DNA of 64,000 bases from IMG/VR virus record IMGVR_UViG_3300027749_000046, one strand, 5' to 3'. How positions within the stretch are numbered: the first letter of the stretch is position 1; the number at the start of each line of letters is the position of its first letter. Source of the DNA: a virus. Below are positions 1 to 25,572 of this stretch, one piece after another. The translations under genes and the position numbers were made by a program. Below the pieces are notes generated by a model. The model was not told the DNA's origin and did no database searches. It saw nothing but the letters and a program-made list of their open reading frames with translations.

Positions 1-73
1 TATCTTCATTCGCTAGACACGACTATGGGGTCGAACAGTCACCCATTCGACCCCACCAACCAACGCGACCAAC

Positions 74-487
74 TCACTCCTCGTTGTAGTCTGTATCACC
101 AGTATGGATGTATAAGTCACCAAACGATATCGTACCACCAGTCTTTGATGTATTGAAGTTCGGCATCTCGATGACGTGCCCACCCATAAACTCTCCGACT
201 TTTATGCTGTCATATACTTTGACACACCCTAGAGTACCTGAGTCGACTGGGAACTGTCTATCACCGTTTGAGTCGTAGCAGCCATCCCCATAAGCCGTAC
301 GCCATATGGCAAACTTACGACCGTCAGGCAGCTCAAACGCCCCCTCCTTGACGTCTCCACCGTCCATAAAAACCCAATCCTCGCATATAGTCATGGCGCA
401 GACCTCGTCCCACTCCTCAGAAGTAAAGTAGTAGCACAGGTCGCCGATGTAGTACTTACCGGCCTTGAACTCATTATTCAACATCAT
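74..487 (-). CDS. hypothetical phage protein
   Basis: 137 aa ORF with YYIGDLCY/TAYGDG/FPVDSG blocks, GAGG RBS upstream, coupled to 474..737. Confidence 0.75.
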   Translation of the reverse strand: MMLNNEFKAGKYYIGDLCYYFTSEEWDEVCAMTICEDWVFMDGGDVKEGAFELPDGRKFAIWRTAYGDGCYDSNGDRQFPVDSGTLGCVKVYDSIKVGEFMGGHVIEMPNFNTSKTGGTISFGDLYIHTGDTDYNEE

Positions 488-737
488 CTTCCTCCTCTAC
501 GTGAACTTTGTTTGGCTCCTCCCACTCGATGGGTTGGAGCTGTTCGGCTATCTGAAACGTATAGTCTCTACGTCCAGAATCACTCATCATCCTAGCAACT
601 TTAGATCCAAAGTATAGGGCCGCTTTTTGGGTGGTGAACACCTTCGGGTTGCCCTCCATAGAGAGTAAAGTATAGGACGATAGGTCGACCTCGTGGATAG
701 TCAGTATGAACATCACTCGCCTCCTGTGCTGGTCCAT
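474..737 (-). CDS. hypothetical protein, possibly leaderless
   Basis: 87 aa ORF; ATG lies 6 nt after a TTTACT-N17-TATTAT promoter. Confidence 0.65.
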   Translation of the reverse strand: MDQHRRRVMFILTIHEVDLSSYTLLSMEGNPKVFTTQKAALYFGSKVARMMSDSGRRDYTFQIAEQLQPIEWEEPNKVHVEEEDDVE

Positions 738-743
738 ATTATT

Positions 744-826
744 ATAATATATTATATGGAATCCAAAGTAAACATATATTTTAATAAAAAATAACAGTTT
801 ACAAGAGAATACTCATGATATATTAT
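744..826. promoter_or_regulatory. divergent sigma70-type early promoters
   Basis: AT-rich gap; + strand TTTACA(798-803)-N17-TATTAT(821-826); - strand TTTACT-N17-TATTAT. Confidence 0.6.
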
Positions 827-852
827 TATATTGTCAAATGAGGAGTTGCTAC

Positions 853-1065
853 ATGAACAGTAACAAGATTAGAGAAGAACTTTCTTACTGGCGAGCCAAG
901 TACGACGAGTACATCGATGCAGACCACCACGTACTGGCCGTCTGCGCCATGGAGATGCTCATCAAGTACAAGCGCCAGCTAGACATCGCGATCATATGTG
1001 AGCTAGATCCATACACGACAGAAGCAGATGTTCGCTACTTTGAGGATTGGAGAGAGTATGCCTAA
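853..1065 (+). CDS. small early helical protein (paralog A), C-terminal DPYTTEADVRYFE
   Basis: AGGAG RBS at 841, ATG 853; shares a 13-aa motif with 1995..2210. Confidence 0.75.
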   Translation: MNSNKIREELSYWRAKYDEYIDADHHVLAVCAMEMLIKYKRQLDIAIICELDPYTTEADVRYFEDWREYA

Positions 1066-1264
1066 AGAAAAGAAGATCGGCGTAGAGTTCATCAAGCGAG
1101 TCGCCAACGAAGTTTTGTCGTCACCGCGAACAAACGCGTCAGAGAGGTCCATAGTGTGTGACCTAGTAGAGTCGGTACTCTTTGAGGCCAAGGCCTACAA
1201 GGGATATATGTACCTCGAGTGGAACGACGCCGAGACCGATCAGACTCGTCGTTTATATTATTAA
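1058..1264 (+). CDS. hypothetical protein
   Basis: GGAGAG RBS then ATG 1058 overlapping the upstream gene. Confidence 0.7.
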   Translation: MPKEKKIGVEFIKRVANEVLSSPRTNASERSIVCDLVESVLFEAKAYKGYMYLEWNDAETDQTRRLYY

Positions 1265-1270
1265 AACGAT

Positions 1271-1301
1271 AGTTGACAGGGGTCAACTCATGTCATATTA
1301 T
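1271..1301 (+). promoter_or_regulatory. early promoter with palindrome over the -35 box
   Basis: TTGACA(1273-1278)-N17-TATTAT; AGTTGAC-aggg-GTCAACT inverted repeat 1271-1288. Confidence 0.7.
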
Positions 1302-1329
1302 ATTATCGTAACAAGGAGAGGATCTACCA

Positions 1330-1533
1330 ATGCATACGTATCAAGTCATATCAGTGGCTCAGAGACTCGAGGCGATAGTGGGTGACGGGCTCAGGTATAA
1401 GCTCAGTCGGGAAGAGCTCGAGGCCGAGATCGTCGAGTTCGCCACGTCACTTAGACACTACGCGCAGAGACTAGAAGAGATCGAGGTCGCCTCTCAGGCG
1501 ATACTACAGAGGGAGATGCACCATGTCAACTAG
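1330..1533 (+). CDS. small early helical protein (paralog B)
   Basis: GAGG RBS; aligns by eye with 2448..2633. Confidence 0.75.
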   Translation: MHTYQVISVAQRLEAIVGDGLRYKLSREELEAEIVEFATSLRHYAQRLEEIEVASQAILQREMHHVN

Positions 1534-1942
1534 GTCAATGATAGCCACGCTTAACCAAGATAGCTCCGTCAAGGCCATCTACTGTCACTTCGACGGGTAC
1601 GTCGAGGGTGTCGGCATAACGCTCCTCAGCCACTGGAACACACTCGAGAAGGTCCAGTCCCTGATGGAGCTCGGTGACCTCTCGTCCCTAGGTTCCGAGA
1701 TAGGTCAGAAGCAGGACTTCAACCTGCCGACCGACAAGACTTGGTGTCTGGCCTACGGTCGCGACCGAGGTGAGACCGACGTCGGCTCTCGAGACTTCCA
1801 CTCCCTCCACTATGCCGAGGGTAACTACGGGGACGTCGACTACCTCTACGTGTTCGACGGTACTCACTGGTCGTTCAAGCGCAGGGGAGCCAAGGAGTAC
1901 ACCGACCTCGGTCAGTACGCTCTCGAGGAACTATTCGGTTGA
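1523..1942 (+). CDS. conserved phage early hypothetical protein (MSTRS...IYCHxDGY family)
   Basis: 139 aa ORF, GGAG RBS, motif typical of phage early genes. Confidence 0.8.
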   Translation: MSTRSMIATLNQDSSVKAIYCHFDGYVEGVGITLLSHWNTLEKVQSLMELGDLSSLGSEIGQKQDFNLPTDKTWCLAYGRDRGETDVGSRDFHSLHYAEGNYGDVDYLYVFDGTHWSFKRRGAKEYTDLGQYALEELFG

Positions 1943-1967
1943 CATTTAATCCGAACTGTGGTACTAT
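1939..1967 (+). promoter_or_regulatory. early promoter, class TTGACATTTAAT
   Basis: TTGACA-N17-TACTAT with extended -10 TG. Confidence 0.85.
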
Positions 1968-1994
1968 CTTATTATGATGATGAAAGGACAACAG

Positions 1995-2210
1995 ATGAGC
2001 AGATACTCAGACCTCACGGTGGACCAGCTCCGCAAAGCCCTCGACCACATGGAGCTCAACTACGGGGTGGCCATGGACGCCGAGTCGTACGGGCTGGCCG
2101 ACGCATTCCTCGCCAAGATCGACGGCCTCACGGAGGCTCTCTCGGCTCGTCTCCAAGCTGACGATCCCTACACGACCGAGGCCGACGTCCGGTACTTCGA
2201 GGGCATCTGA
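1995..2210 (+). CDS. small early helical protein (paralog A'), UVR-motif-like, C-terminal DPYTTEADVRYFE
   Basis: AAGGA RBS, ATG 1995; L..M..A...ESY.LA..F...I..L pattern. Confidence 0.75.
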   Translation: MSRYSDLTVDQLRKALDHMELNYGVAMDAESYGLADAFLAKIDGLTEALSARLQADDPYTTEADVRYFEGI

Positions 2211-2211
2211 C

Positions 2212-2364
2212 ATGTCCAACAGAGTCTCCTTCACCGGTAAGTCGTGGAACCACCTGAACAAGATGATCCGCCGGTACTCCGTTCTGGGGTACCGAGTGGT
2301 GTACCAGCATCGACATCCGGACGGTGGTACCACCATCGCAATGGAAAAGAGCCATGCTTCTTGA
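2212..2364 (+). CDS. 50 aa hypothetical protein (not in ORF track)
   Basis: GAGG RBS, MSNRVSFTGKSWNHLNKMIRRYSVLGYRVV...; fills the gap exactly. Confidence 0.6.
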   Translation: MSNRVSFTGKSWNHLNKMIRRYSVLGYRVVYQHRHPDGGTTIAMEKSHAS

Positions 2365-2389
2365 TCATACCTGCCATGCCGCTGGCCTA

Positions 2390-2417
2390 TTGACATTTAA
2401 TCCACTTGTGATATAAT
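2390..2417 (+). promoter_or_regulatory. early promoter
   Basis: TTGACATTTAAT...TGATATAAT, 16 nt spacer. Confidence 0.85.
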
Positions 2418-2447
2418 CTTAATATGATCAAAACTAAGGGATACACC

Positions 2448-2633
2448 ATGACAGTCAATGAGTCAGTAGATATCGCCGAGCGTCTCGAGTCGCTCATTCG
2501 TCGCTCGCGTAAGTACTTCTACGACGTCGAGGATCTTCAGTACGAGATCCGAAAGATCGCCAGCGAGTACCGCGAGCTCGCGAACGAGCTCGACTCTGCC
2601 ATGGAAGCTGAGCTGATGGAGGTCGCCGCGTAA
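2448..2633 (+). CDS. small early helical protein (paralog B')
   Basis: AAGGGA RBS, ATG 2448; similar to 1330..1533. Confidence 0.75.
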   Translation: MTVNESVDIAERLESLIRRSRKYFYDVEDLQYEIRKIASEYRELANELDSAMEAELMEVAA

Positions 2634-2639
2634 TACCTG

Positions 2640-2667
2640 TTGACATTTAATCTTCTTATGATATAAT
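2640..2667 (+). promoter_or_regulatory. early promoter
   Basis: TTGACATTTAAT...TGATATAAT, near-copy of 2390-2440 including ATATGATCAAAAC leader. Confidence 0.85.
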
Positions 2668-2697
2668 AACTATATGATCAAAACAAAGGAAAATTCA

Positions 2698-3561
2698 ATG
2701 CCACGTGGTGTTCCAAAAGCCGGCTTCCGTGCCGCTCGCTCTTCTTCCCCAGCCAAGGCCTTCGACGTAGTCCAGCTCAAGCCGGCTACTCAGACCGAGA
2801 CCGACATGCAGATCTGGTCGCGTATTGCCGACCGGTTCGACGTGCTGTCGACCTTCACCGAGGCCTGTGCCATGGGCTCATGCCGGTCCATGATCGTGTC
2901 CGGTCCAGCTGGTCTCGGCAAGTCCCACACCGTCGAGGAGACACTCCTCAGGCTCGACCCGACCGGTGACAACCACACGTTCGTCAAGGGTTTCGTCCGT
3001 GCCACCGGCCTGTACAAGCTCCTGTTCCAGCACTCGTCTCCAGGTCAGGTCTTGGTACTCGACGACGCCGACTCGGTGTTCTTTGACGATGTATCCCTGA
3101 ACCTCCTCAAGGCCGTGTGCGACACCACCGGCGTCCGTCGAGTCGGCTGGCGTGCTGAGGGTTCCCTTATCGACGACGATACCGGTGAGCGCATGCCTCG
3201 GTCGTTCGACTTCAAGGGCACCGTGGTGTTCATCACCAACCTCGACTTCGACGCCCTCATCGATCGCGGTCACAAGCTGGCTCCTCACCTTCAGGCTCTG
3301 GTCTCTCGGTCGCACTACATCGATCTGGCCATGAAGACCAAGCGCGACTACATGGTTCGCATCCGTCAGGTCGTCGAGGCAGGTCTCCTGTCTGGTCTCA
3401 CTCCACTCGAGAAAGCCGACGTCATGTCGTTCATCGAGACCGAGCAGAACACCCTCCGCGAGCTCTCGCTCCGCATGGTGATCAAGGTCGCCGACGTCCG
3501 CAAGATGGGTGCGGCTAACTTCCGCAAGGTCGCCAAGGTCACTTGTTGTAAGAATGGATAA
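2698..3561 (+). CDS. AAA+/P-loop ATPase
   Basis: Walker A GPAGLGKS, Walker B VLVLDDAD, sensor FITN; AAGGA RBS before ATG 2698. Confidence 0.85.
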   Translation: MPRGVPKAGFRAARSSSPAKAFDVVQLKPATQTETDMQIWSRIADRFDVLSTFTEACAMGSCRSMIVSGPAGLGKSHTVEETLLRLDPTGDNHTFVKGFVRATGLYKLLFQHSSPGQVLVLDDADSVFFDDVSLNLLKAVCDTTGVRRVGWRAEGSLIDDDTGERMPRSFDFKGTVVFITNLDFDALIDRGHKLAPHLQALVSRSHYIDLAMKTKRDYMVRIRQVVEAGLLSGLTPLEKADVMSFIETEQNTLRELSLRMVIKVADVRKMGAANFRKVAKVTCCKNG

Positions 3562-3598
3562 ATAAGGGACAGTTGGCTCTCTTATAAGAGGTGATAAG

Positions 3599-3871
3599 AT
3601 GAAGAAGTTTTTATTGGTTACAACTCTGGTCTCAGGACTGGTCCTACCGCAGGTAGCTCATGCCGGCGGTGAGTGGATAGGTCCACTCGTAGGTGGTATC
3701 TTTGCTGGTGCCATCTTGAATGAGATGGGTCATGATCACAGGTATGACAACAGGTACGATCGTAGGTACTACTATCCCCAGTATCCACAGCGCGTGTGTC
3801 AGCGCATAGACGTCTACGATAGGTACGGCAACTACGTCGGCCAGCAGGTAGTCTGTCGGGACGTGGACTAA
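3599..3871 (+). CDS. exported small protein (signal peptide, Gly-rich helix, Tyr/Arg-rich tail, Cys pair)
   Basis: MKK-hydrophobic-AHA signal peptide; architecture like alphaproteobacterial BA14K-type small proteins. Confidence 0.7.
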   Translation: MKKFLLVTTLVSGLVLPQVAHAGGEWIGPLVGGIFAGAILNEMGHDHRYDNRYDRRYYYPQYPQRVCQRIDVYDRYGNYVGQQVVCRDVD

Positions 3872-3879
3872 GAGCTGAC

Positions 3880-4623
3880 GTGGAGATACAGTTGATCAAG
3901 TACAAGGCGGTGTTCATATCCGACGTTCACCTCGGTACTCGCATGAGTCGTCCTGACTTACTCCTCGAGTTCATGAGGACGTTCGAGTGCGAAGAGCTGT
4001 ACTTGGTCGGCGACATCATCGACGGCTGGGCTATGTCTAGGTCCTTCTTCTGGCCGCAGGATCACAACGACGTGGTGCAGAAGATACTCAGGAGAGCCCG
4101 TAAGAACACACACGTTACCTTCATTCCGGGTAATCACGATGAGTTCCTAAGGTCGTTCTGCGATAATCAGTTCGGTAATGTCTCGCTGCTCAAGAGCGAC
4201 ATCTACGTGTCGGTCACAGGTAAGAGATATATAGTCATGCACGGCGACGAGTTCGACTCGGTCATCACGAACGCCAAGTGGCTGAGTCATCTCGGCAGCT
4301 GGGGCTACGACATGACGATCGTGTTCAACATCTGGTTGTCTAAGATAAGAGGCATGCTTGGTCTTCCATACTGGTCTCTCAGCGCGTACCTCAAGTACAA
4401 GGTTAAGAAAGCAGTAAACTTCATAAGTGGATACGAGGAGAATCTATCTTCATATGCGAAGACTAAAGCTGCTGATGGGGTCATATGTGGTCATATTCAT
4501 CATCCAAACATTCGTAAGATTGGTGAGATTGACTACATGAACTGCGGTGACTGGGTCGAGAGCTGCACGGCTCTGGTCGAGCACTTGGACGGTACGTGGG
4601 AGATAATAGACTACAAGAGATAA
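3880..4623 (+). CDS. LpxH-like (UDP-2,3-diacylglucosamine diphosphatase family) metallophosphoesterase
   Basis: DVHLG, GDIIDGW, GNHD, HGD, GHIH, NCGDWVES motifs. Confidence 0.85.
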   Translation: MEIQLIKYKAVFISDVHLGTRMSRPDLLLEFMRTFECEELYLVGDIIDGWAMSRSFFWPQDHNDVVQKILRRARKNTHVTFIPGNHDEFLRSFCDNQFGNVSLLKSDIYVSVTGKRYIVMHGDEFDSVITNAKWLSHLGSWGYDMTIVFNIWLSKIRGMLGLPYWSLSAYLKYKVKKAVNFISGYEENLSSYAKTKAADGVICGHIHHPNIRKIGEIDYMNCGDWVESCTALVEHLDGTWEIIDYKR

Positions 4624-4624
4624 T

Positions 4625-4714
4625 GGAAGGGTGGCCGAGTGGTTTAAGGCTCTAGTCTTGAAAACTAGCGTAGGTGAAAGCTTACCGTGAGTTCGAATCT
4701 CACCCCTTCCGCCA
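4625..4714 (+). tRNA. tRNA-Ser(TGA)
   Basis: cloverleaf, long variable arm, CT-TGA-AA loop, encoded CCA. Confidence 0.95.
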
Positions 4715-4716
4715 TT

Positions 4717-4793
4717 GGTCACGTAGCTCAGCTGTATAGAGCATCGGTTTCCTAAACCGAGGGTCACAGGTTAGAGTCCTGTCGTGATCGCCA
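4717..4793 (+). tRNA. tRNA-Arg(CCT) with U19-A56 elbow
   Basis: cloverleaf, TT-CCT-AA loop, D-loop AGCTGTATA, T-loop TTAGAGT, CCA. Confidence 0.9.
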
Positions 4794-4809
4794 ATAAGAG
4801 GAGAGAGCA

Positions 4810-5013
4810 GTGGAAGAACTAAATCAGTTCGTCGGTAAGGAACTATCGTCTGTTAACGAACAGATAACAGATATCGCAAGCAAGAGTGGACTCACAGTCC
4901 AGCCTTGGCCTAAGGGCGTTGGCATTGTAGCCGGAGAACCTAAGACTCTTCTCGTGGTTGTCAACAACACGGAAGAGAATATCATAGATCAGTTTATCGC
5001 GTACGAACCATGA
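4810..5013 (+). CDS. small paralog 1, potato-I/I78 protease-inhibitor-like pattern
   Basis: GTG start with GGAG RBS; L..FVGK...I...A...GL.V.PWP.G...P..LLVVVNN...II..F. Confidence 0.7.
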   Translation: MEELNQFVGKELSSVNEQITDIASKSGLTVQPWPKGVGIVAGEPKTLLVVVNNTEENIIDQFIAYEP

Positions 5014-5024
5014 TGGGAAGCAAT

Positions 5025-5231
5025 ATGAGAGATCTAGAAAAGTACGTGGGCAGGCGCTACTCGGAAGTTAACGAGGAGATCAAGTCATACGCTGAAGCCA
5101 ATGGGCTCACGGCCTTCCCATGGCCTGACGGCATCGGCGGTGCTGGCGCAGACCCTGAGTCTCTCATCGTCATCATAAATAACGATATCGATCAGATCAT
5201 CGTTAGATTCAAGCACTTTGTAGAGGAATAG
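5025..5231 (+). CDS. small paralog 2
   Basis: aligns over full length with paralog 1; start could be 5010-5025. Confidence 0.7.
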   Translation: MRDLEKYVGRRYSEVNEEIKSYAEANGLTAFPWPDGIGGAGADPESLIVIINNDIDQIIVRFKHFVEE

Positions 5232-5234
5232 TAG

Positions 5235-5438
5235 ATGGAAGATCTTAGTTCTTACGTAGGTAAAGTCTTAACATATATAGTTCTAGAAGAAATTAGCTCG
5301 AAGGCTTCTGCTTCTGGATTTAGAGCAGACGTATGCGCTAGAGATATGGAAGTCAATGATCCGGACCCAGAGGTCATCATCGTCTTTGTGGACAATATCG
5401 ATGATATGATCATCACAAAGTTCTACATACCAAGTTAA
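5235..5438 (+). CDS. small paralog 3
   Basis: GAGG RBS; DL..YVGK...DPEVIIVFVDN...MIITKF. Confidence 0.7.
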   Translation: MEDLSSYVGKVLTYIVLEEISSKASASGFRADVCARDMEVNDPDPEVIIVFVDNIDDMIITKFYIPS

Positions 5439-5513
5439 GGCCGGTTAGCTCAGCGGTAGAGCACCTCGCTTACACCGAGGCTGTCGGCGGTTCGAGACCG
5501 TCACCGGCTACCA
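5439..5513 (+). tRNA. tRNA-Val(TAC)
   Basis: cloverleaf, CT-TAC-AC loop, CCA. Confidence 0.95.
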
Positions 5514-5521
5514 TTTTTCAG

Positions 5522-5550
5522 TTGACATTAATTCCAGACTGTGGTATATT
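5522..5550 (+). promoter_or_regulatory. early promoter
   Basis: TTGACA-N17-TATATT with TG extension. Confidence 0.8.
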
Positions 5551-5573
5551 ATATACATAATGGAGATTTGGCA

Positions 5574-5981
5574 ATGAGCATGCACCTAGCACCAGTTTAC
5601 TTTACCACGACGCGTTCAGGCCAGAAGAGTAAGGCATCAAAGAGCAAGAAGCTCGCCGACGCTACGGCCAAGCACGAGCAGTGGCTCAAGGCCAGAGGCC
5701 TGCATCCTAATCAGAGAGACCTGCAGAGAGCGTTCAAGGGTAGGTACGTCGAGGCACTACCCGACCTCAGCGTCGAGTCGCTCTATGAGCTCTCTAATGG
5801 CATAGGAAATGGATATAAGAATGGTATCATGGAGAATCTCCGCAGGGAGAAGCCAGAGGTTCAAAGAGAAATCCTTGAGAAAGCTCAGCGCACTACAGTC
5901 GCCTACAACAAGGGACCAACTATGTACTTCAGTCCCGAGTCAGACAAGACCAACCTTGGTTCAGGTTCACGGAGAGGATAA
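5574..5981 (+). CDS. conserved T4-like hypothetical protein (AYNKG motif)
   Basis: GGAG RBS, ATG 5574; basic N-terminus, C-terminal VAYNKG. Confidence 0.75.
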   Translation: MSMHLAPVYFTTTRSGQKSKASKSKKLADATAKHEQWLKARGLHPNQRDLQRAFKGRYVEALPDLSVESLYELSNGIGNGYKNGIMENLRREKPEVQREILEKAQRTTVAYNKGPTMYFSPESDKTNLGSGSRRG

Positions 5982-5982
5982 T

Positions 5983-6195
5983 ATGTACGAGAAAGTAGCG
6001 AGTACCTACGCATCAGAAGACGGTAGCCTAGAAGCTCAAGTCATCGAGGTAATTAAGATCGAGAAAGCTTACGAGGTACGCATGTATCGCGATGGTAAGC
6101 TGGTAGATAAGCGTTACTCTTCTGGTAAGAGTGAGCTCTACCATGAGAACATCGCTGAGAACTACGTCACCGGAGTCTTGAGTCTGGAGAGCTGA
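5983..6195 (+). CDS. hypothetical protein
   Basis: GAGG RBS, ATG 5983 (MYEKVAS...). Confidence 0.7.
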   Translation: MYEKVASTYASEDGSLEAQVIEVIKIEKAYEVRMYRDGKLVDKRYSSGKSELYHENIAENYVTGVLSLES

Positions 6196-16689: not shown

Positions 16690-17352
16690 TTAGAAGCTAG
16701 AAGATGCTTCAACCGCCACGAAGTAGTCAGCCACATCACCTCTGAAGTGTGAGATACCCTTAGAAGAGATATCCACGTCGTAGTCTCCAGCGATTAGCTT
16801 GATGTTCTCAGACTTAAAGATCATCTTGAAGGTCTTGTCTGTCGAGCCAACCGCGATGGAGTAGACATCAGACGATGTGTTCTTTGAGTCCATCGCCTGT
16901 AGGTTGATGTCCTGTCCGTCGCCCACGACTGCGATCTCAGGCAGTCGTAGAACTCCAAGGCCCTTCATGACGTCATTGAGTGCGTCATTAGTAAGCTTAA
17001 AAGATACGTCGGTGGTAGGCAGCTTGATCTCTTTATCGGGAGGCGAGATGACCGTAGAGGTATCAGCAAACCGATACTGCATCTTCTTTCCAGAGCTTAA
17101 GATCGTGACGTGCTTCTCGTTGATCTCAAGAGTCGGATCATTGAACAGGGATAGAGTGCTCAAGAATCGCGATAGATCATAGATAGCAAACTGACTCTCG
17201 AACTGCTGTCCGATTGTAGCCTTTGCCATGATCGTCTTGTTAGGCGAGATTGTAGTTAAGACGCTACCTGGCTTTACCAAGATAGACGGGTTGATAGTAG
17301 AGAAGTTCTTCAACACCGCGATGGTCTTTTGTTCTAGCTTAATGGTCTGCAT
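16690..17352 (-). CDS. 45: sliding clamp gp45
   Basis: LKNFSTINPSI, FAIYDLSRFL, YFVAVE. Confidence 0.95.
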   Translation of the reverse strand: MQTIKLEQKTIAVLKNFSTINPSILVKPGSVLTTISPNKTIMAKATIGQQFESQFAIYDLSRFLSTLSLFNDPTLEINEKHVTILSSGKKMQYRFADTSTVISPPDKEIKLPTTDVSFKLTNDALNDVMKGLGVLRLPEIAVVGDGQDINLQAMDSKNTSSDVYSIAVGSTDKTFKMIFKSENIKLIAGDYDVDISSKGISHFRGDVADYFVAVEASSSF

Positions 17353-17369
17353 AATATACTTCCTTCAAT

Positions 17370-18224
17370 TTACTTCTTATTCTTACCGCCGAGTGCGCCT
17401 GGATCTGCCGTAGCAGCAGCACCGATAGACGCTAGGTCGGCAAGTGAGCCGCCAAAGATATAGGTACCTACGTGCTGCATCTTCATCCAAGGGCAGAACC
17501 AAGTCTTGAGGTTTAGCTCTTGAATCTTCTGACAGAACCAGTAGTCCTCAGAGAGATAGCGATTAGATACTGGATCGATCTCAGCTTGGAAGTACTGCAT
17601 GATCTGACGAGTACCATCGAAGTGCTCTGTGCGAACGTGATCTGGCTTGTAGAGATACTGCTTGAAGCTGTCAGCGAACTTCTGCATCGTAGCTTTCTTA
17701 ATCATCATGAAGCCCGTGCCAATCTCAAGTACCTCGACTGGCTCCGCGATGGAGATGCTTCCCGCACCGCCCTTTGGATTGAACACGTAGTCACCCACGA
17801 AGTTCTCAAGAACGTTTGGATCTTTATCGGCGATACCCTTGTCGACCGCGAGTTTGATCTTCTCCCAGCTGATGCACTTCTTAGGATATGGACCGCCGAT
17901 GACGTCGTACTCATTGCCTTCCTTGATAGACAAGGCGAGGAGGGCGATAACATCCTGTGGGTTGAATCCAATATCTGAGTCGATAAACATCAGGTGAGTT
18001 GCGTCAGAGCGCATGAACTCGTCACAGCAGTAGTTACGTGCGCGAGTAATAAGCGACTCGTTAAACAAGAAGTAGAACTGCAGCGGGATGCCATAGTGAG
18101 TGCAGAGTGCTGACAAGTCAGCGATAGAGCGAGTAAACATGCCCGCGCACATGCCGCCATACATCGGTGTGGCGATCATGATCTTGTGCTTGCGAAGCTC
18201 CTCAATCGGTACGTTAATTTCCAT
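17370..18224 (-). CDS. GT-A fold glycosyltransferase-like protein
   Basis: IATPMYGG, ESLITRARN, FIDSD (DxD), GTGFMMI, SEDYWFC, HVG. Confidence 0.8.
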   Translation of the reverse strand: MEINVPIEELRKHKIMIATPMYGGMCAGMFTRSIADLSALCTHYGIPLQFYFLFNESLITRARNYCCDEFMRSDATHLMFIDSDIGFNPQDVIALLALSIKEGNEYDVIGGPYPKKCISWEKIKLAVDKGIADKDPNVLENFVGDYVFNPKGGAGSISIAEPVEVLEIGTGFMMIKKATMQKFADSFKQYLYKPDHVRTEHFDGTRQIMQYFQAEIDPVSNRYLSEDYWFCQKIQELNLKTWFCPWMKMQHVGTYIFGGSLADLASIGAAATADPGALGGKNKK

Positions 18225-18649
18225 TATTTAGACTCCTTGTTGTGTTCTTGATCATGAACATATAGTTGCATCATTGCGTAGTGAATGACCTTCATCATGT
18301 CTTTTCTCCAGTCTTCTGGAGAACCCTTCCTGCCGTATCGCTGGGCGTACTTTAGTACATTCCCTACGCAGAAACCTGTGCCGTGTCCTGAGTCCATGAT
18401 AAACTCAGTGGCTTGAAACTTATTCTTTGAGTAGTGCTCTCCGTATGTATTATTAATATACACCGTAAGCTCATTTAAGTAAACCCCTTCGTTGTACTTA
18501 TATGGAATTTCTTTCTTGACGTCTACTTTGGTTATATTAAAACTCATGTTGATGTCTGTCTCGACGTATCCATCCTTTGGCCCTGTCGAGTACATAGGTT
18601 TCTTATCAGAACCACGCGCCCCAACTGTATATTTGCCTATTACATCCAT
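18224..18649 (-). CDS. DUF3310/SaV-like (T7 gp1.7-like nucleotide kinase family) protein
   Basis: HYS, GFCVGNVLKYAQRYGRK, DMMKVIHY. Confidence 0.75.
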   Translation of the reverse strand: MDVIGKYTVGARGSDKKPMYSTGPKDGYVETDINMSFNITKVDVKKEIPYKYNEGVYLNELTVYINNTYGEHYSKNKFQATEFIMDSGHGTGFCVGNVLKYAQRYGRKGSPEDWRKDMMKVIHYAMMQLYVHDQEHNKESK

Positions 18650-19833
18650 GCTGTAATGTCTCCTCCACTCTTAGCTTTAACTTCATACTCTTGCGATAGA
18701 TTACTCTGATAGACATAGTCTGTATCTAGCTCTTCTAAGCTACCCTCAAGCCACTTCTTGATCTCACTCGCCATATCTCTCGCGGTGACTACCGGAACGT
18801 TCTGACAGATGTGGTTGTAGTTCTTGTGGGCGTCGAGAAGCTCGAAGTTATCAGGCAGACCCATGATGGTCATCGCCTCCCTGTAGTTTATATAGCGGTC
18901 TTCATGGGGATGCGTCAGGCAGGTTGGGTAGTGACCGACGAACGCGCCGATGTAGTCCTTAGGCACTATGGTACCACGACGCATGATAGATCCACCGGCA
19001 TTTAGCTTGTCGTACTTGTACTGACACTTTGCCACCTCGCGCTCTAGCCCCTGAGCGGCCATCCACTCACCGACTTGCGCGTAGTTATACCCGAGCTTCT
19101 CGATATAACCAGACACGTCATTGCCGCGGGCGTTTGATGGCTCCATGATATCAAAGAACTCTCTGTGCGAGATACCGCCGTGGATGTTCTCTAGGATAAA
19201 ACGGTAGTACGGGTCTTGACTAGGTGTCTTCTTGTTGATTGGATCGCGCTGACTGTTACCGAGCGCGCCGAGGATTACGTCCTCGATCTTTGTGTACGGG
19301 CGATTGAAGTAGCCTAAGACTGGTGTCTTATCGCTCTTCCAGAAGAAGTAGAATGAGCGCTCGCGAACTTGAGAACCACCGTGGAGCTTCGTCCTCGTGC
19401 GATAGACAGTCATGGTATAGCCGTTGTCCTGACCGATCTTACGAAGCTGCTTGCGGACGTTCTCACCGATCTTGCCGGCAAATCCGGGAGCGTTCTCACC
19501 CCAGAGTACCTTAGGCTGTACTTCCTCGAGAACGTACTTTGTTGTCTCGATCATCCACTTGTTATTCTGATTGTGATCGCCATAACCCTGAGACAGCATC
19601 GACAGGCCAGCGCATGGGCATACAGAGCCTACCACGTCTACCTTGACGTCAGGCTTCTGGTTCTTATCTAGTACGTAGTAGGGAACGTCTTGATAGTGAT
19701 TGACGATATGCTGGTCGTTGGACCAGAACGCCTCGTACGACATGAGGTACTCAGGTCGAGTACCAAACGCTAGTTCTTGACCAATGGTCTCGCCGCCGAT
19801 CAGGGGGACGATAGTCGCATGCTTAAAAGTCAC
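18640..19833 (-). CDS. divergent C5-cytosine methyltransferase-fold protein
   Basis: CPCAGLS (IV), ENAP (VI), QVRER (VIII), REAMTIMGLPD (IX), QNVP (X); motif I degenerate (PLIGG). Confidence 0.8.
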   Translation of the reverse strand: MTFKHATIVPLIGGETIGQELAFGTRPEYLMSYEAFWSNDQHIVNHYQDVPYYVLDKNQKPDVKVDVVGSVCPCAGLSMLSQGYGDHNQNNKWMIETTKYVLEEVQPKVLWGENAPGFAGKIGENVRKQLRKIGQDNGYTMTVYRTRTKLHGGSQVRERSFYFFWKSDKTPVLGYFNRPYTKIEDVILGALGNSQRDPINKKTPSQDPYYRFILENIHGGISHREFFDIMEPSNARGNDVSGYIEKLGYNYAQVGEWMAAQGLEREVAKCQYKYDKLNAGGSIMRRGTIVPKDYIGAFVGHYPTCLTHPHEDRYINYREAMTIMGLPDNFELLDAHKNYNHICQNVPVVTARDMASEIKKWLEGSLEELDTDYVYQSNLSQEYEVKAKSGGDITAWM

Positions 19834-20930
19834 TTATTAGCCTCCAGTACGCGAGTAAGCTCTGCTCTCTCGGCCGCTTTATCTAGTGGGTGGTTATCAT
19901 ATAGACATTCGTACTGGTATTTAGCTAGCTTCTCTAGCTGGCTTTGGTCCATACCCTCGATGTCAGCTACGCTCAGACCGGTGAAGGCGTCACCGTAGAT
20001 CTTACCCTCAGTATCCTCACAGTACAGGATAGAACCTGCGTCTACGACCTGCTGGACGCGAGAGCGCCACCATCCAGACCCAGCGTGGTAGTAGGCAGGC
20101 ATCAGACAACCCCAGTGATTATTGTAAACTCGGCACATGTCCGGCTCTGTCACGCGCATGCTCTTGTGCTCACCGCGACGAGCGCCGTAGCTCATGACTT
20201 CCCAGTTGGCGGTCTTGCTGCTGAGCCACTTCTTTGTCTTATTTTGAATCAGCGATGAGAATACCCAGCCGCGAATCTTTTTATCTGGGCCGACGTCGTT
20301 GTCATCAAAGAAAGAGCCTAGGCCTTCTTCGCCGTAGTTATTCGTCGGCCCGCGATTTAAGTTATATGGGTTGGGATTGAATGAGAATAATCTATCTGAA
20401 GGAAACCCATTCTTTAGTTTTGTAAGATCACCGCCTGCAAAGGCGCATACCATGAGTCGGTTCTTGCGAGACAAGACGATGTCGATGGCATCGATGTAGT
20501 CTTGCTTATGTGCCTTTACGGTCTCTTGGCTTGAGTTTCCAGAATACAGCTCGAACATATAGTCGCGAAAAGGCTTGTACTTCTCTTCGTCGAGTAAGTT
20601 CCTCTTGTACTGAGGATAGCTCGCCATCACCTGGTCGATCTGCCAGTCATCATGAGCAAAGATAGCATCAGGCCTAGCCTTGATTGCATACAGCCCATCG
20701 TATAGATTCTGACAGAAAGACTGAATGCTGTGAAGGTAGATGATCACCTCGTCGTAGTGACTGATGTCCTCGCCGATTGTCACCGCGCGCTGCTCTACAG
20801 TCCAACCCATGTCCTCTAGGCATCTCACGAGCGAGTAGTGAGAGTTGAGGATCTTTAGTTCTTTCTTGAGGAAGTAGTCGCGTACGCACTGCTCGCGATT
20901 CATACCGGTGATGAGTATCTTCTTAGCCAT
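19830..20930 (-). CDS. putative GT-B DNA glycosyltransferase
   Basis: KILITG Rossmann start, DDWQ, C-terminal GCLMPAY..GSGWWRSR; context near gp42-like gene. Confidence 0.55.
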   Translation of the reverse strand: MAKKILITGMNREQCVRDYFLKKELKILNSHYSLVRCLEDMGWTVEQRAVTIGEDISHYDEVIIYLHSIQSFCQNLYDGLYAIKARPDAIFAHDDWQIDQVMASYPQYKRNLLDEEKYKPFRDYMFELYSGNSSQETVKAHKQDYIDAIDIVLSRKNRLMVCAFAGGDLTKLKNGFPSDRLFSFNPNPYNLNRGPTNNYGEEGLGSFFDDNDVGPDKKIRGWVFSSLIQNKTKKWLSSKTANWEVMSYGARRGEHKSMRVTEPDMCRVYNNHWGCLMPAYYHAGSGWWRSRVQQVVDAGSILYCEDTEGKIYGDAFTGLSVADIEGMDQSQLEKLAKYQYECLYDNHPLDKAAERAELTRVLEANK

Positions 20931-21303
20931 GGATATATTCCTTACACTTCACGAGCTGCTCTAGCTCATAGCTCTTATCATTTAGCTTTCTATTTAGTCC
21001 CGATGGATGGGGAAGCACGTGGTGCTCTACATTAATTTTTCGTAGTGCTTGAGATGGAAAGTTACCGAGTGCAATCACCTTGGCGTGTCCCTCTGTGCAT
21101 GACTTCAGCATATCCAGATCGATGTCCTTAAACTTATAAGAACCAGGCTCACTGATGCAGTTGGTGAATGAGAACAGGTCTAACTCTAGATAGTCAGCCC
21201 AAGCAGGCAGACGCCGCCATGTGGTATTCTGCTTGAGCTTTGCTGCAGACGGGTTGATACCAACGATGAGTACCCTACCAAGCTTCTGGTTCGCTGACGG
21301 CAT
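20923..21303 (-). CDS. minimal uracil-DNA-glycosylase superfamily protein
   Basis: VLIVGINPS, FTN, VIALG, LPHPSGLNR. Confidence 0.75.
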   Translation of the reverse strand: MPSANQKLGRVLIVGINPSAAKLKQNTTWRRLPAWADYLELDLFSFTNCISEPGSYKFKDIDLDMLKSCTEGHAKVIALGNFPSQALRKINVEHHVLPHPSGLNRKLNDKSYELEQLVKCKEYIHG

Positions 21304-21766
21304 CTAGTAGTTCTCCAGTTTTATAGTCGTATCTAGCTGCGAATACACCAGCTTCTTTGAACATCATAGACGTGAACTTATATGCATCATGCCATATGGG
21401 AGCGATATCAGCAGGATGGCAGATAAACACACGCTTGATACCTACCTGTATGACTCCCTTGGCGCACTCAGAGCAAACAGGAAGACCATGTACGTACAGG
21501 TCCGCGCCGTTGAGACTAGTACCATTGAGCGTAGCATTATATATGCAGTTCTGTTCTGCGTGCACTACGAACTTGTACTTGGTCTCTCTGTCATGCAGGC
21601 GTTCTTGACTATCTTCTACCCCACGCGGGAAGCCGTTGTAGCCCTGCGAGAGGATCTGTCCGTGTTTGCCTACGGCCACAGCTCCAACTTGCGTGCTTGG
21701 ATCTTTAGACCAAGACGATATATGCTGAGCTAACCTGAGGTAGTTCTGCGTCCACTTATACGACAA
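21275..21766 (-). CDS. cd: dCMP deaminase
   Basis: SKDPSTQVG, GYNG, HAEQN, PVCSEC; TTG start about 21766-21772 after GAGG. Confidence 0.92.
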   Translation of the reverse strand: MSYKWTQNYLRLAQHISSWSKDPSTQVGAVAVGKHGQILSQGYNGFPRGVEDSQERLHDRETKYKFVVHAEQNCIYNATLNGTSLNGADLYVHGLPVCSECAKGVIQVGIKRVFICHPADIAPIWHDAYKFTSMMFKEAGVFAARYDYKTGELLDAVSEPEAW

Positions 21767-22412
21767 GATCAAAATGCCTCTCGTATACGTGAAGGCTGCC
21801 GACCTGCCACGTGATCTCACCTGCGATGACACCGAGATCTGCCGCCAGCTTCTGCTGCACGTGTTTCTGCCAGGCATAGTCGTTCTTATATCCATAGACG
21901 ACATCATTGGATCGCATCTGAACTACAGTCTGGAGCTTACCATCTCGAATCATGTACTGAACTGCGTTGGTGCACATGAAGTCAGACCGACCGTTGTAGT
22001 CATAGTCATACCACATGCTGGGCCGAGTATAGATCATGATTGCGCGACGAGACAGTGGGTTCCTAATTAGCTCTTCAAAGCAATTCTTATACTGGTTCTC
22101 ATTCTCAGAAGTGTAGATACACCAGCCGTAGTTTGAGTTGATAAATCCATCATGGTCTGCAACCTGCTGCCAGATCGCTGGTGCACCACCTGGAATATCA
22201 TACACGTTTAGAGACTTAGAGTTATACCAATCGATCTCGCGCTTGATGTAGTCATCATTTGGAGTGCCAAAGATAGCTGGTTCATTAGCTCGAAACTGTG
22301 CGCCGACCATCTCGAGCATCTTAACGCCGGTCTTATCGGTAACAAAGTCCTCACGCTCGAGCATGCTCTTGAAAGCGCCGCGGATAGTATTGATTGTGAA
22401 CATATAGTCCAT
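21756..22412 (-). CDS. 42: dCMP hydroxymethylase-like thymidylate synthase homolog (T4 gp42-like)
   Basis: INSNYGW, DFMCTN, MRSNDVVYGYKNDYAWQ (Asp specificity residue, not the TS PFN), GSLHVY. Confidence 0.9.
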   Translation of the reverse strand: MDYMFTINTIRGAFKSMLEREDFVTDKTGVKMLEMVGAQFRANEPAIFGTPNDDYIKREIDWYNSKSLNVYDIPGGAPAIWQQVADHDGFINSNYGWCIYTSENENQYKNCFEELIRNPLSRRAIMIYTRPSMWYDYDYNGRSDFMCTNAVQYMIRDGKLQTVVQMRSNDVVYGYKNDYAWQKHVQQKLAADLGVIAGEITWQVGSLHVYERHFDLVV

Positions 22413-22849
22413 TAGAGATCTCCTGGTCTAGCGATTGGATTGATACCAAAGCCCGGCGCGCCTGACATAGTAAATGCATTATCTTGCGGACGAAGTTTTG
22501 GTACTTTTTCAAGCATGATCTTGCGATTAAGAAAGTCGCGATCTGCATCTTGGCCTTCGACCTTACCACGAGCATACGCCACGAAGAACGAAGCGTAGTT
22601 GATTAGGTCCTTTGCTGAGTCTTCTAGCGACTCAAAGTTCTGCGTGTAGCCAGGATCGTTCTGCATGGCTTCCATGACAGACCGCATGCGAAGCATCTTG
22701 GCGTGCATGATCTCGTGGATAGTCAGACAGCCGGATGGATAGTAGTCTGACTGCTTGATCTTTGAGTTGGGATTCTGATAGTCACGTGACTTCTTGAGCT
22801 GAAGATCAATGCACTCTTGAAGAACTTTTACTGACTCACGTTGTTCCAT
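22412..22849 (-). CDS. nucleotide-modification-associated helical domain (Nmad1/DUF1599-like)
   Basis: KKSRDY, K.LR, ESLEDS..DLINYA. Confidence 0.65.
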   Translation of the reverse strand: MEQRESVKVLQECIDLQLKKSRDYQNPNSKIKQSDYYPSGCLTIHEIMHAKMLRMRSVMEAMQNDPGYTQNFESLEDSAKDLINYASFFVAYARGKVEGQDADRDFLNRKIMLEKVPKLRPQDNAFTMSGAPGFGINPIARPGDL

Positions 22850-23417: not shown

Positions 23418-23472
23418 GTTTCACCTTATTCATAATATAACTCATTATAACATGCTCAGCAATATTTGTCAA
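23406..23472 (-). promoter_or_regulatory. consensus promoter with start-codon-masking hairpin
   Basis: TTGACA(23472-23467)-N17-TATAAT; perfect 15-bp inverted repeat 23406-23420/23449-23463. Confidence 0.85.
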
Positions 23473-23870
23473 TAGGTAATCATGGTGAACAACCCGTGAT
23501 TACCCTCGTGTGATGGAGCTTTCCATCCCTCAGGCTTGATTAGATCTGGTAGGCCGAGAGGGTTAGGCCGCTCTGGCTTAACACCCGTCTTCTTATTCAT
23601 GTTAGCTTCTAAGACCTCGTCCCAAGCTCTATGAGAGTCGACGCCAAAACCGTCGAGAGTTCCAATTGCAACGACGCACAGGTCGATCAGAGCGTCGACC
23701 ACGTCCTCGGCTCCACTTGCTTTTCTGAGCTCATCGAGTTCTTCTTGCAAGAAGTTAATGCGAAACTCGAGAAACTTTGCAAGAGTCTCAGAGTCCATCT
23801 TATCAATAACAGGATGTACTCCATAGTGCTTATGCATCCTCCAAATATCTTTTACCCAGTCTTTAGACAT
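23469..23870 (-). CDS. MazG/PRA-PH-like dNTP pyrophosphohydrolase
   Basis: QEELDEL, DALID, ANMNK, KPEGWKAP. Confidence 0.85.
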   Translation of the reverse strand: MSKDWVKDIWRMHKHYGVHPVIDKMDSETLAKFLEFRINFLQEELDELRKASGAEDVVDALIDLCVVAIGTLDGFGVDSHRAWDEVLEANMNKKTGVKPERPNPLGLPDLIKPEGWKAPSHEGNHGLFTMITY

Positions 23871-24399
23871 TAATCCACTCCGGTGCTTCTCGTTTTTTCC
23901 AATTATGCATCTTGGCTTTACCTATCTTATAATAGTTTCTGTAATTTGTCAATGGGTCGCTGCTGATCTTGTACTCGTCTGCCATAGCCGATGGCATTGG
24001 AGTCCAGTCGTAAGACTGTAGGTTCTTAGGAGGTGACTGAAGATAGTAGCCCATGTCATAGCACTTGTGCTTCTTGCCATAGCGATATGTATACTCCTCG
24101 CACAGCGCAAAGAAGTGCTCTACGAGCCAGTTGTAGTTCTCTATGGACTCACGACACCAAACTGCAGAGGGATGGTTCATGTGAGTGGCCGCGTACATGA
24201 TCGTGTCGCGAGCATCTGGAAGAGTCCACCTCTTTACCTTGCGGCCTAGCTTAGACAAGCCGACTTGCATCTCGCCGTCGAGTACGCGATGAGCAGTCGA
24301 GAGCAGTTGTGCTGACTCGAGGATCATCTTTACCACGTGTTTATCCACCATCCAGCGCGCTGCCTGCACCGGATCTTCATCAATATAAAAGATATTCAT
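23863..24399 (-). CDS. pyrimidine-dimer glycosylase/DenV-related conserved protein
   Basis: MNIFY, DKHVVKMILESAQLLSTAH, THMNHPSAVW, EYTYRYGK.H, YRNYY. Confidence 0.75.
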   Translation of the reverse strand: MNIFYIDEDPVQAARWMVDKHVVKMILESAQLLSTAHRVLDGEMQVGLSKLGRKVKRWTLPDARDTIMYAATHMNHPSAVWCRESIENYNWLVEHFFALCEEYTYRYGKKHKCYDMGYYLQSPPKNLQSYDWTPMPSAMADEYKISSDPLTNYRNYYKIGKAKMHNWKKREAPEWINV

Positions 24400-25079
24400 T
24401 ATTTACTCGCGTATATCATGCTTGCCCAGTTATTCTTAGGATCTTGCGCAGTGACCACCTTAAATTCCTTTGATAGGTAGTCGACAGTCCACTTGAACTT
24501 GTCTTTTGTCTTACCGTCGCGAAGAGCATTCTGGTGCCATTCCATTACCATGGCCTCGATCGGAGTCCAGTCGACTACGTCATTTTGGAAGATGTCCCAC
24601 TCACCGCCCTCGATGTCGAGCTTGAGCTTGTTGGCGCCAGACTCAGCTAGCGCTCTAGAGAATCTAGTTGCCTTCGCAGTAGTAAAATCTCGGCCTCTAC
24701 TCGTAACCGTCGAGTGCATGCCCTTGTTCTTGAGCTTGTTGATGAAGAACTTGATCTCGCTATCGTCAGAACCGATAAGAGCCAGATTATGGAGAGTAAC
24801 ATTCGAGCACCCGTTCCGTTCTAAGTTCTTACGGGCGATCTCGTAGTTGTCGGCATCGGGTTCGTATGATACCACTCGGCTCACGAGCTTTGAAACTCGC
24901 GTCGAGTAGGCAGCGATATTACAGCCGGCATCCATTACCACATCAGTTGGCTTATAGCTCATCACGTCATTGAAGTAAGTACTACGGTAGCACTCGTCTA
25001 CCACGTATTTATCTAGAGTTTCAGGTCGAGTATAGAATGTCTCATTCTCATTCTTACGCGTGTAGTCCTCAAGCAACAT
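24399..25079 (-). CDS. FkbM-family methyltransferase
   Basis: DAGCNI, SYEP, N...N, KLDIEGGE, MEWH. Confidence 0.85.
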   Translation of the reverse strand: MLLEDYTRKNENETFYTRPETLDKYVVDECYRSTYFNDVMSYKPTDVVMDAGCNIAAYSTRVSKLVSRVVSYEPDADNYEIARKNLERNGCSNVTLHNLALIGSDDSEIKFFINKLKNKGMHSTVTSRGRDFTTAKATRFSRALAESGANKLKLDIEGGEWDIFQNDVVDWTPIEAMVMEWHQNALRDGKTKDKFKWTVDYLSKEFKVVTAQDPKNNWASMIYASK

Positions 25080-25572
25080 TTTTAACTCCTTGGAATAGTG
25101 AATCGCGCTTCTTGAATGCTAGCTCGCGATGGTACTTGTTAGCTCGGTTATAGAACAAGATGCCGTCGAGATGGTCGATCTCATGCTGGAATACTCGAGC
25201 GGTCATGCCTGTAAACATCTCAGTTCGTGTGTCGCCATTTGGCATGGTGAATCGAACTCGAACGTGCTGAGACCGCTTTACCTTTACCACGAGACCCGGA
25301 TACGACATGCATCCCTCGTCGAGTAGTACTTTCTCGTCGCTGGCCATAACGATCTTTGGATTAAAGCACACGAAGTTCTCAGGCATGCTTCTCATGGCAA
25401 AGACGCGATATGGAACTCCAACCTGATTAGCCGACAAGCCAATTCCATTATTATCGCGCATGAACTTAACGAGATCTTTTGCGAACTCGATTGGATCAAA
25501 CGGAGGACTTGCAAAGTCAAACTCCATGCACTCGCGTGTTAAGATAGGGTTACTTCCAGTCACTAGATCCAT
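25069..25572 (-). CDS. def: peptide deformylase
   Basis: GIGLSANQVG, EGCMS, QHEIDHLDG. Confidence 0.95.
   Translation of the reverse strand: MDLVTGSNPILTRECMEFDFASPPFDPIEFAKDLVKFMRDNNGIGLSANQVGVPYRVFAMRSMPENFVCFNPKIVMASDEKVLLDEGCMSYPGLVVKVKRSQHVRVRFTMPNGDTRTEMFTGMTARVFQHEIDHLDGILFYNRANKYHRELAFKKRDSLFQGVKNVA

Follow-up and report, generated by a model that had tools for sequence, protein, structure and literature searches.

Why would a phage equipped to place a substituted cytosine in its DNA keep a gene for a protein with the fold of a cytosine-C5 methyltransferase (C5-MTase)? The question is raised by a 64,000-nucleotide stretch of viral DNA, the IMG/VR record IMGVR_UViG_3300027749_000046 (hereafter the window, meaning this whole stretch), which comes from an uncultured T4-like myovirus. 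An open reading frame (ORF) on its minus strand (18640-19833), where the window genes cited below with exact coordinates are also found, starts with GTG and encodes a protein of 397 residues, referred to here as the methyltransferase-like (MT-like) protein, of what we call the PLIGG/QNVP family. A first-pass annotation, made from the letters alone, had argued that a plain methyltransferase would be redundant in a genome whose C5 is already substituted, and that the gene may encode a repurposed enzyme acting on 5-hydroxymethylcytosine (hmC) or on residual C. The reading developed here, to which about even chances are given, is that of an enzyme independent of S-adenosylmethionine (SAM), which would work on nascent phage DNA, at C5 of either hmC or residual C, by way of an adduct between its cysteine and C6 of the base.

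The gene can be taken as real because the protein has ~2,360 homologs (E<1e-5) in a set of 5.8 billion proteins, and because its AlphaFold2 (AF2) model, obtained with an input of 116 homologs, reached a mean pLDDT of 95.1. The Pfam family of the C5-MTases, PF00145, was matched at E 3e-16 with 60.1 bits against a gathering score of 22, and a Foldseek search with the model returned significant PDB matches to C5-MTases only (MET1, DNMT1, CmoX 8YF3, M.HhaI and M.HaeIII), the top ones with E values of 1e-13 to 1e-10 and TMq of 0.5-0.6. Altogether, AF2 and Foldseek revealed the two-domain fold of these enzymes, and the pLDDT is lower at residues 75-88, which correspond to their mobile catalytic loop. 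As in M.HhaI, M.HaeIII and E. coli Dcm, all within PF00145, catalytic motifs IV (PC), VI (ENx), VIII (QxRxR) and IX are all present. Translation and profile or family alignments placed the catalytic Cys74 in motif IV (CPCAGLS, 19600-19620), followed by an Ala75 opposite Gln82 of M.HhaI, an invariant Glu113 in motif VI (ENAP, 19486-19497), Q155-x-R157-x-R159 in motif VIII (QVRER, 19357-19371), and motif IX in the segment REAMTIMGLPDNF (RE...MGLPDNF, 18844-18882). The mobile loop, base flipping and attack on C6 known from type II and orphan C5-MTases are predicted for the MT-like protein too.

On the side of the pocket that faces the methyl donor, however, the protein departs from its relatives. 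An hhalign comparison with Dcm set V9-P10-L11-I12-G13-G14 (VPLIGG, 19792-19809) opposite F-A-G-I-G-G, so that in the family the adenine-stacking Phe of motif I has become Val or Ile and the first Gly has become Leu; past motif I this alignment is unreliable (probability 39%), and it was left unused for motif II. A profile search against the PDB aligned C74/A75 with C81/Q82 of M.HhaI, and C343-Q344-N345-V346-P347 (motif X, CQNVP, 18793-18807) with G-N-A-V-P of M.HaeIII, which puts Gln344 at the site of the Asn conserved in M.HaeIII and M.HhaI; the same residue aligns with Arg350 of CmoX. Translation of the exact coordinates thus bore out both the intact catalytic motifs and the altered motifs I and X described by the first-pass annotation. 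With regard to motif II, the alignment of the family profile to M.HhaI and M.HaeIII begins only at residues 40-60. D40 lies opposite D31 of M.HaeIII where that alignment starts and, by extrapolation from it, the sites of the ribose-binding Glu and of the aromatic residue or Trp would correspond to a variable position and to Asn39. In the AF2 model beta-2 ends at residue 32, residues 33-38 after it contain no acid conserved in the family alignment, and at the canonical Glu site members of the family carry S, D, P, K, E or T.

Published structural and kinetic work indicates what these positions do. Adenosine and ribose are contacted in CmoX by Phe25, Glu47, Phe48 and Asp69, and the residue facing the transferred group is Asn304 in M.HhaI and Arg350 in CmoX (PMC12783734). 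Q82 and N304 of M.HhaI line the space around that group, and the Q82A change alone reduces methylation ~16-fold (PMC3526304). Reading the residue alignments together with these contacts, every mappable determinant of SAM binding is changed and every determinant of cytosine activation is kept. In comparison with C5-MTases, VPLIGG takes the place of FxGxGG, the Glu and Trp of motif II are absent, PCQ has turned into PCA, GNxVP into xQNVP, and ENV into ENAP. The MT-like protein would possess the base-activating half of a C5-MTase and lack four sequence hallmarks of the SAM-dependent enzymes, namely the FxGxGG of motif I, the acid of motif II, the Gln of motif IV and the Asn of motif X.

Such changes had been called degenerate in the first-pass annotation, a word that proved to be wrong, since those in motifs I and X are near-invariant across 128 diverse sequences. 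Many homologs, 63-93% identical, are sited on viral contigs of 100-180 kb, and a library clustered at 50% identity holds 243 representatives of the family at E<1e-30. Conservation was counted with 127 full-length representatives of 30-60% identity and tabulated out of 128: in motif I, P10 and L11 were each found in 125, G13 in 126 and G14 in 124; in motif IV, C74 in 127 and A75 in 109, the rest having mostly Ser or Gly; in motif X, Q344 in 126, N345 in 122 and V346 in 125; and E113, R157 and R159 in all 128. In sets of 116-128 sequences, C74, E113, R157 and R159 stay invariant or nearly so down to 30% identity. Compared with other proteins of these loci, the conservation of the MT-like protein roughly equals that of the clamp loader subunit gp44 and exceeds that of the clamp gp45 or gp62. 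A return to FxGxG in relatives, which had been named beforehand as a sign of an ordinary enzyme, was seen in none of the homologs examined, and FxGxGG occurs in 0/240 full-length members in the fetched loci. Judged from the alignments, the motifs on the cofactor side have not decayed but have been rebuilt, and their new form is strictly conserved. The first-pass interpretation is supported in part: the idea of a repurposed enzyme gains strength from the pocket conserved throughout the family and from the linkage to gp42 described below, whereas an action on hmC or residual C is a proposal.

The family is confined to viral contigs or contigs of metagenome-assembled genomes (MAGs), and the ESM Atlas likewise shows viral clusters labelled as C5-MTases. 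In prokaryote contigs sampled at one genome per species just 12 loci were found, every one on MAG contigs, and a bacterial restriction-modification origin was rejected on this ground. No published description of a PLIGG/QNVP family was found in full-text literature searches. PLIGG and QNVP are also kept in long forms of 598-1462 residues encoded on short metagenome contigs (P0223, P0160, P0178 and P0197), whose tails are rich in Lys and Glu and look eukaryotic; a zf-CXXC domain (E 7e-7) is present in one of them and is the only Pfam domain found in the extensions, while Cys/His pairs are seen in others.

The most conventional explanation would be a regular SAM-dependent DNA cytosine-5 methyltransferase whose SAM site is unusual but works, directed at residual C in phage DNA or at host DNA. 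This is how public annotation from the Joint Genome Institute (JGI) has it, homologs being listed as site-specific DNA-cytosine methylases, and it agrees with a Pfam score well above gathering (60 vs 22), with the complete set of catalytic motifs, and with the preservation of the GG of motif I and of an acidic residue at position 40. Against it, the adenosine- and ribose-binding residues of M.HhaI and CmoX (the motif I Phe, and the motif II Glu with Trp or Phe) have no counterparts family-wide, and the Gln82 replacement, here Ala, is by itself the one that cuts M.HhaI methylation. The PF00145 match spans profile positions 54-324 only, leaving the motif I/II region of the ORF unrecognised, and the NCBIfam dcm model TIGR00675 gives 29.9 bits, far under its cut-off of 100.65. 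Moreover, cultured bacterial genomes lack the family, which is strictly tied to phages in which C5 is already substituted, so that an ordinary methylase is considered unlikely.

A natural precedent for changing what is put onto C5 exists in CmoX of Synechococcus phage S-B43 (8YF3), a cytosine C5-carboxymethyltransferase dependent on carboxy-SAM (Cx-SAM) that takes part in a hypermodification pathway (PMC12783734). Like the MT-like protein, it is a phage enzyme of the C5-MTase fold in which the motif X Asn has been replaced. This invites the alternative of a CmoX-like alkyltransferase with a new donor, either a SAM derivative such as Cx-SAM or a nucleoside diphosphate (NDP)-linked one, moving a bulky group onto C5 of unmodified cytosines. 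CmoX is among the best PDB matches, nucleotide-sugar genes abound in the gene clusters, and the Ala at the Q82 site together with the altered N304 site mirror the positions engineered in M.HhaI for extended donors (PMC3526304). Nevertheless, CmoX keeps its adenosine-binding residues and an SPPC motif, needs CmoA, and works on unmodified C in GC sites, whereas the MT-like protein has VCPC and Gln344 in place of SPPC and Arg350, and does not conserve the adenosine site, with Phe25, Glu47, Phe48 and Asp69 all missing. A tblastn search with E. coli CmoA gave no hit better than E 1.8 in the window, and none at 1e-3 in ~250 related loci. Furthermore, few cytosines with a free C5 are to be expected in a genome built with hmC. 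For the lack of SPPC, Arg and CmoA the CmoX/Cx-SAM system itself was ruled out, and a bulky-group transferase in the wider sense seems very unlikely.

If hmC rather than C is the expected context, the phage should be able to make it, and the cluster around the MT-like gene indicates that it is. The thymidylate synthase (TS) homolog at 21756-22412 matches the dCMP hydroxymethylase of T4 (1B49/1B5E) with E 1.5e-82 and identical active-site stretches, in keeping with the hmC-phage setting assumed by the first-pass annotation. Residue rules established for TS enzymes assign Asp or Glu at L143 to a non-methyl product, D169N to a 5-hydroxy-dCMP synthase, and N177D to a dCMP substrate (PMC13326640); with L143 replaced by Asp, D169 kept and N177 replaced by Asp (signature D/C/D/D), the window enzyme is by these rules classed as an hmdCMP synthase of the gp42 type. 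For three subfamilies, the surroundings of member genes were taken from 236 IMG/VR loci and compared after clustering of their ORFs; as the loci are partly redundant, distinct clusters were counted where relevant. The TS homologs adjoining the MT-like gene had Asp at the N177 site in 120/120 cases, and the full signature of T4 gp42 in 118/120. Of 23 distinct MT clusters, defined at 70% identity and flanked on either side by 8 kb or more, 17 had a TS homolog within 10 kb. The question of whether PLIGG is conserved in gp42-linked homologs, posed by the first-pass annotation, can thus be answered positively, given the 124-126 of 128 sequences keeping P10, L11, G13 and G14 and the dCMP type of all the adjoining TS homologs.

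The second constant of these loci is a DNA-directed transferase encoded directly upstream of the MT-like gene. In the window this is a glycosyltransferase (phrog_14998, here p14998; 19830-20930), whose model (pLDDT 84) has the T4 beta-glucosyltransferase as its closest PDB fold, which agrees with the GT-B enzyme proposed at first sight; the proposed translational coupling was found as well, as the GTG start of the MT-like gene overlaps the upstream TGA stop (GTGA). In other loci the position is taken by an AGT-like DNA alpha-glucosyltransferase (PF11440), by a 418-residue glycosyltransferase-like protein, or by a protein with the helical domain of 5-hydroxymethyldeoxyuridine (5-hmdU) DNA kinases (PF18723). 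Accompanying genes encode a nucleotidyltransferase or kinase, a HAD-family protein, an epimerase and, in one jumbo-phage lineage, myo-inositol-1-phosphate synthase. A 293-kb IMG/VR contig (L122:3606-12141) carries a gp42-type TS, myo-inositol-1-phosphate synthase, an FkbM methylase and a HAD-like protein, with a 481-residue 5-hmdU DNA kinase helical-domain protein directly upstream of the MT-like gene and an epimerase next, an arrangement that hints at a kinase- or inositol-based cytosine hypermodification.

Two cultured phages, the cyanophage S-TIM5 and the Pseudoalteromonas phage XG4, also combine a PL(I/V)GG protein with an N177D TS homolog; XG4 has sugar-activation genes in addition, and S-TIM5 an AGT-like gene. 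BLASTP detected no similarity between p14998 and the upstream proteins of XG4. In S-TIM5 (L081:5775-6611, minus strand, and NC_019516 6802-7188), the TS homolog has Asp at N177 and Cys at L143, a signature that is unclassified. Because the genome joins a TS homolog with this Asp to an AGT-like gene, S-TIM5 DNA probably carries a modified cytosine; the literature searched contained no chemical characterisation of it.

A C5-MTase-family gene next to DNA glycosyltransferases is also seen in the pathways formed by a methyltransferase, TET/5mYOX and a glycosyltransferase (PMC8256090; bioRxiv 10.1101/2023.12.21.572611). In those, a canonical SAM methylase and TET produce hmC from 5mC once the DNA has been replicated, whereas here it would come from a gp42-type dCMP hydroxymethylase. 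Five carrier genomes gave no match to Tet_JBP (PF12851) in a search run without a positive control, and this system was set aside in view of both points. A second, canonical C5-MTase was sought in the same five genomes and not found, each having exactly one PF00145 gene. A further parallel is hmC glucosylation in T4, which has the same hmC synthase, transferases resembling those found here (BGT-like or AGT-like), and action on newly replicated DNA, but no component with the C5-MTase fold.

The C-terminus of the protein suggests where such an enzyme may work. A hydrophobic-x-x-aromatic-hydrophobic end, typically (S/T)-L-E-x-F-(F/L/I), was observed in 121/179 distinct family members and in 5.5% of the other 4,034 ORFs of the same loci (Fisher p ~1e-95). 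The gp43 DNA polymerases of this phage group end in the same manner (STLEDFFG, NTLESFFA, NTIEDFFT), and in one contig the core NTLESFF is common to the polymerase and the MT-like protein. In the T4 family, the C-terminus of the polymerase docks on the gp45 clamp, as known for T4 gp43 and from the structure of the RB69 polymerase peptide with its clamp. The family tail is therefore probably a sliding-clamp hook, and in the window its presumed docking partner would be gp45 (16690-17352; PF09116, E 1.4e-14). In the subclade of the window the tail has diverged to D-I-T/S-x-W-M/L, retaining the hydrophobic/aromatic pattern alone; it reads GGDITAWM (18643-18666), lies behind a linker of low confidence, and is only suggestive of a clamp hook in this particular protein. 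Some AGT-like DNA glucosyltransferases (L128:8598-9995 and others of ORF family f19) end in (T/G)LE(D/E/G)F(F/L), as do the polymerase and the MT-like protein, and several DNA-modifying enzymes may share the clamp. With respect to C5-MTases, the family thus stands apart by being virus-only, by its linkage to pre-replicative hmC synthesis, and by this polymerase-type tail.

A clamp-bound protein need not be an enzyme, and a non-catalytic or stoichiometric accessory could be imagined, that is, a protein that flips bases or binds hmC and that either brings in or positions the co-translated transferase or kinase, or shields hmC DNA. The translational coupling and the invariable presence of a DNA-modifying transferase gene next door would suit such a role, as would the finding of a clamp-type tail on the MT-like protein and none on p14998, and a pocket that is unchanged whatever the partner. 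Yet the tail is borne by some of the AGT-like partners themselves, and at 30-60% identity Cys74, Glu113, Arg157 and Arg159 are conserved almost absolutely, as catalysis would require and binding alone would not, which makes an accessory quite unlikely.

Returning to SAM-independent chemistry at C5, the enzyme would be held on the gp45 clamp behind the fork and work on newly made phage DNA. A cytosine-type base would be flipped out and Cys74 added to its C6, with the assistance of Glu113 and of Arg157 and Arg159, and the operation at C5 would then proceed without SAM through a 5-exocyclic-methylene cytosine intermediate, as a DNA-level counterpart of the nucleotide chemistry of gp42. Two versions can be considered. 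In the favoured one, still only a tentative possibility, the adduct would activate the 5-CH2-OH of hmC, or of a phosphorylated or otherwise activated form, for the exchange of nucleophiles, with the phosphorylated form as the putative substrate in kinase-linked lineages. This version fits the smaller residues facing C5 (Q82 to Ala, ENV to ENA), the kinase neighbour, and the coupling of thiols to 5hmC by C5-MTases in vitro (PMC7176277). In the other version, which is doubtful, a one-carbon unit would be installed on residual unmodified C, for which a one-carbon donor is needed, making every cytosine a substrate for the glycosyltransferase; it fits a pocket that is identical whatever the partner transferase, and the CXXC zinc finger of one long homolog.

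The laboratory offers the nearest analogues of this chemistry. Engineered M.HhaI Q82A/Y254S/N304A and eM.SssI carry changes at the motif IV Gln and the motif X Asn, both of which are also altered here (PMC3526304, PMC7176277), and the thiol coupling to 5hmC seen as a SAM-free side reaction goes through a Cys-C6 adduct, which is the type of reaction proposed for the MT-like protein (PMC7176277). The engineered enzymes are laboratory variants, whereas the changes of the MT-like protein are natural and family-invariant, are accompanied by loss of the adenosine site, and include an Asn to Gln replacement that does not yield a smaller residue.

Several observations weigh against SAM-independent catalysis at C5. 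T4 makes glucosyl-hmC without any such enzyme, and the step is therefore not required for the glycosylation of hmC as such. Class I methyltransferases are tolerant of changes in motif I, which makes a novel mode of SAM binding possible. The pocket residues do not vary with the neighbouring transferase, which disfavours a nucleophile specific to each context. The window tail, DITAWM, has diverged from STLEDFFG, the polymerase tail of the closest near-complete relative. Finally, 6 of the 23 well-flanked MT clusters lack a TS within 10 kb. Five of these six, all but L095, were searched as whole records; they comprised two complete jumbo-phage genomes, both with a gp42-type TS elsewhere, adjoining an ordinary ThyA, and three fragments whose searches rest on records 7-10% complete.

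The remaining genes of the window complete the picture of a T4-like replication and nucleotide-metabolism region. RegA, the clamp loader proteins gp62 and gp44, and the gp45 clamp are encoded at 14.9-17.4 kb on the minus strand, and genes at 25-28 kb encode a peptide deformylase and the Pfam domains of T4 gp46 (SMC_N/AAA_23) and gp47 (Metallophos). The closest cultured relatives are Stenotrophomonas phage DLP_6 and the Melnitz phages, with only ~60% identity on gp44, and no DNA-level match to the window was found in 50,697 phage records. Between gp45 and the MT-like gene lies a phrog_1574 protein of 284 residues (17370-18224), with a DSD motif recognised by eye; it occupies this place in 140/237 loci and is the commonest neighbour of the family. 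A DUF3310 protein (18224-18649), whose gene overlaps the downstream end of the MT-like gene by 10 nucleotides, is a possible hm-dCMP kinase, related PHROGs being annotated as nucleotide kinases.

Upstream of p14998, a small protein of 126 residues (20923-21303) resembles the uracil-DNA glycosylase (UDG) fold, the superfamily match being weak and below cut-off (E 4e-4), and in 41 loci its gene is kept between those of the dCMP deaminase and glycosyltransferase. In the ORF list, the dCMP deaminase gene (21275-21907) shares ~150 nucleotides with the 3' end of that for the hydroxymethylase; homologs have ~156-164 residues, so its real start is probably internal, near 21770. Further upstream there are a MazG-like pyrophosphohydrolase that is a candidate dCTPase (22412-22849), a second MazG/PRA-PH-like pyrophosphohydrolase (23469-23870), and a conventional SAM-dependent methyltransferase of the FkbM family (24399-25079; TIGR01444 6e-20, PF05050), which may methylate an attached sugar and whose family is also represented in the jumbo-phage cluster (L122:7412-8128). 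The peptide deformylase gene (25069-25572; PF01327 7e-41) is located within the DNA-metabolism block, as in all pelagimyophages, whose group C has two thymidylate synthases and a dCMP deaminase (PMC7029224); the window phage may belong to this SAR11-infecting group. Positions 1-6000 of the window differ from the remainder in GC content, which reaches 0.56 against ~0.46 elsewhere, and in their short plus-strand ORFs.

To our knowledge, SAM-free reactions of C5-methyltransferases on cytosine or 5hmC have so far been reported only as side reactions in vitro and tools of biotechnology. With a likelihood put somewhat below even, the MT-like protein would be a natural DNA enzyme that has abandoned SAM, the first with the C5-methyltransferase fold, and would build or exchange the one-carbon substituent of cytosine within DNA by means of the Cys-C6 adduct, acting as a clamp-tethered DNA-level hydroxymethylase or as an hmC 'transalkylase' in a previously unrecognised step, possibly leading to an unknown base. 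Only a demonstration of new chemistry would make it categorically new, and the existence of cultured carriers (the cyanophage S-TIM5 and its relatives, and Pseudoalteromonas phage XG4) makes the question directly testable. A natural family specialised for SAM-free chemistry at C5 would, if true, represent a new route of DNA hypermodification, and the protein could provide a natural scaffold for hmC-specific labelling of DNA. Homologs number in the thousands among T4-like and jumbo phages from marine and freshwater habitats, where hmC synthesis always accompanies them, and the product of the family may therefore be a common and uncharted feature of environmental viral DNA, with a bearing on restriction evasion, on sequencing and on the mapping of modifications.

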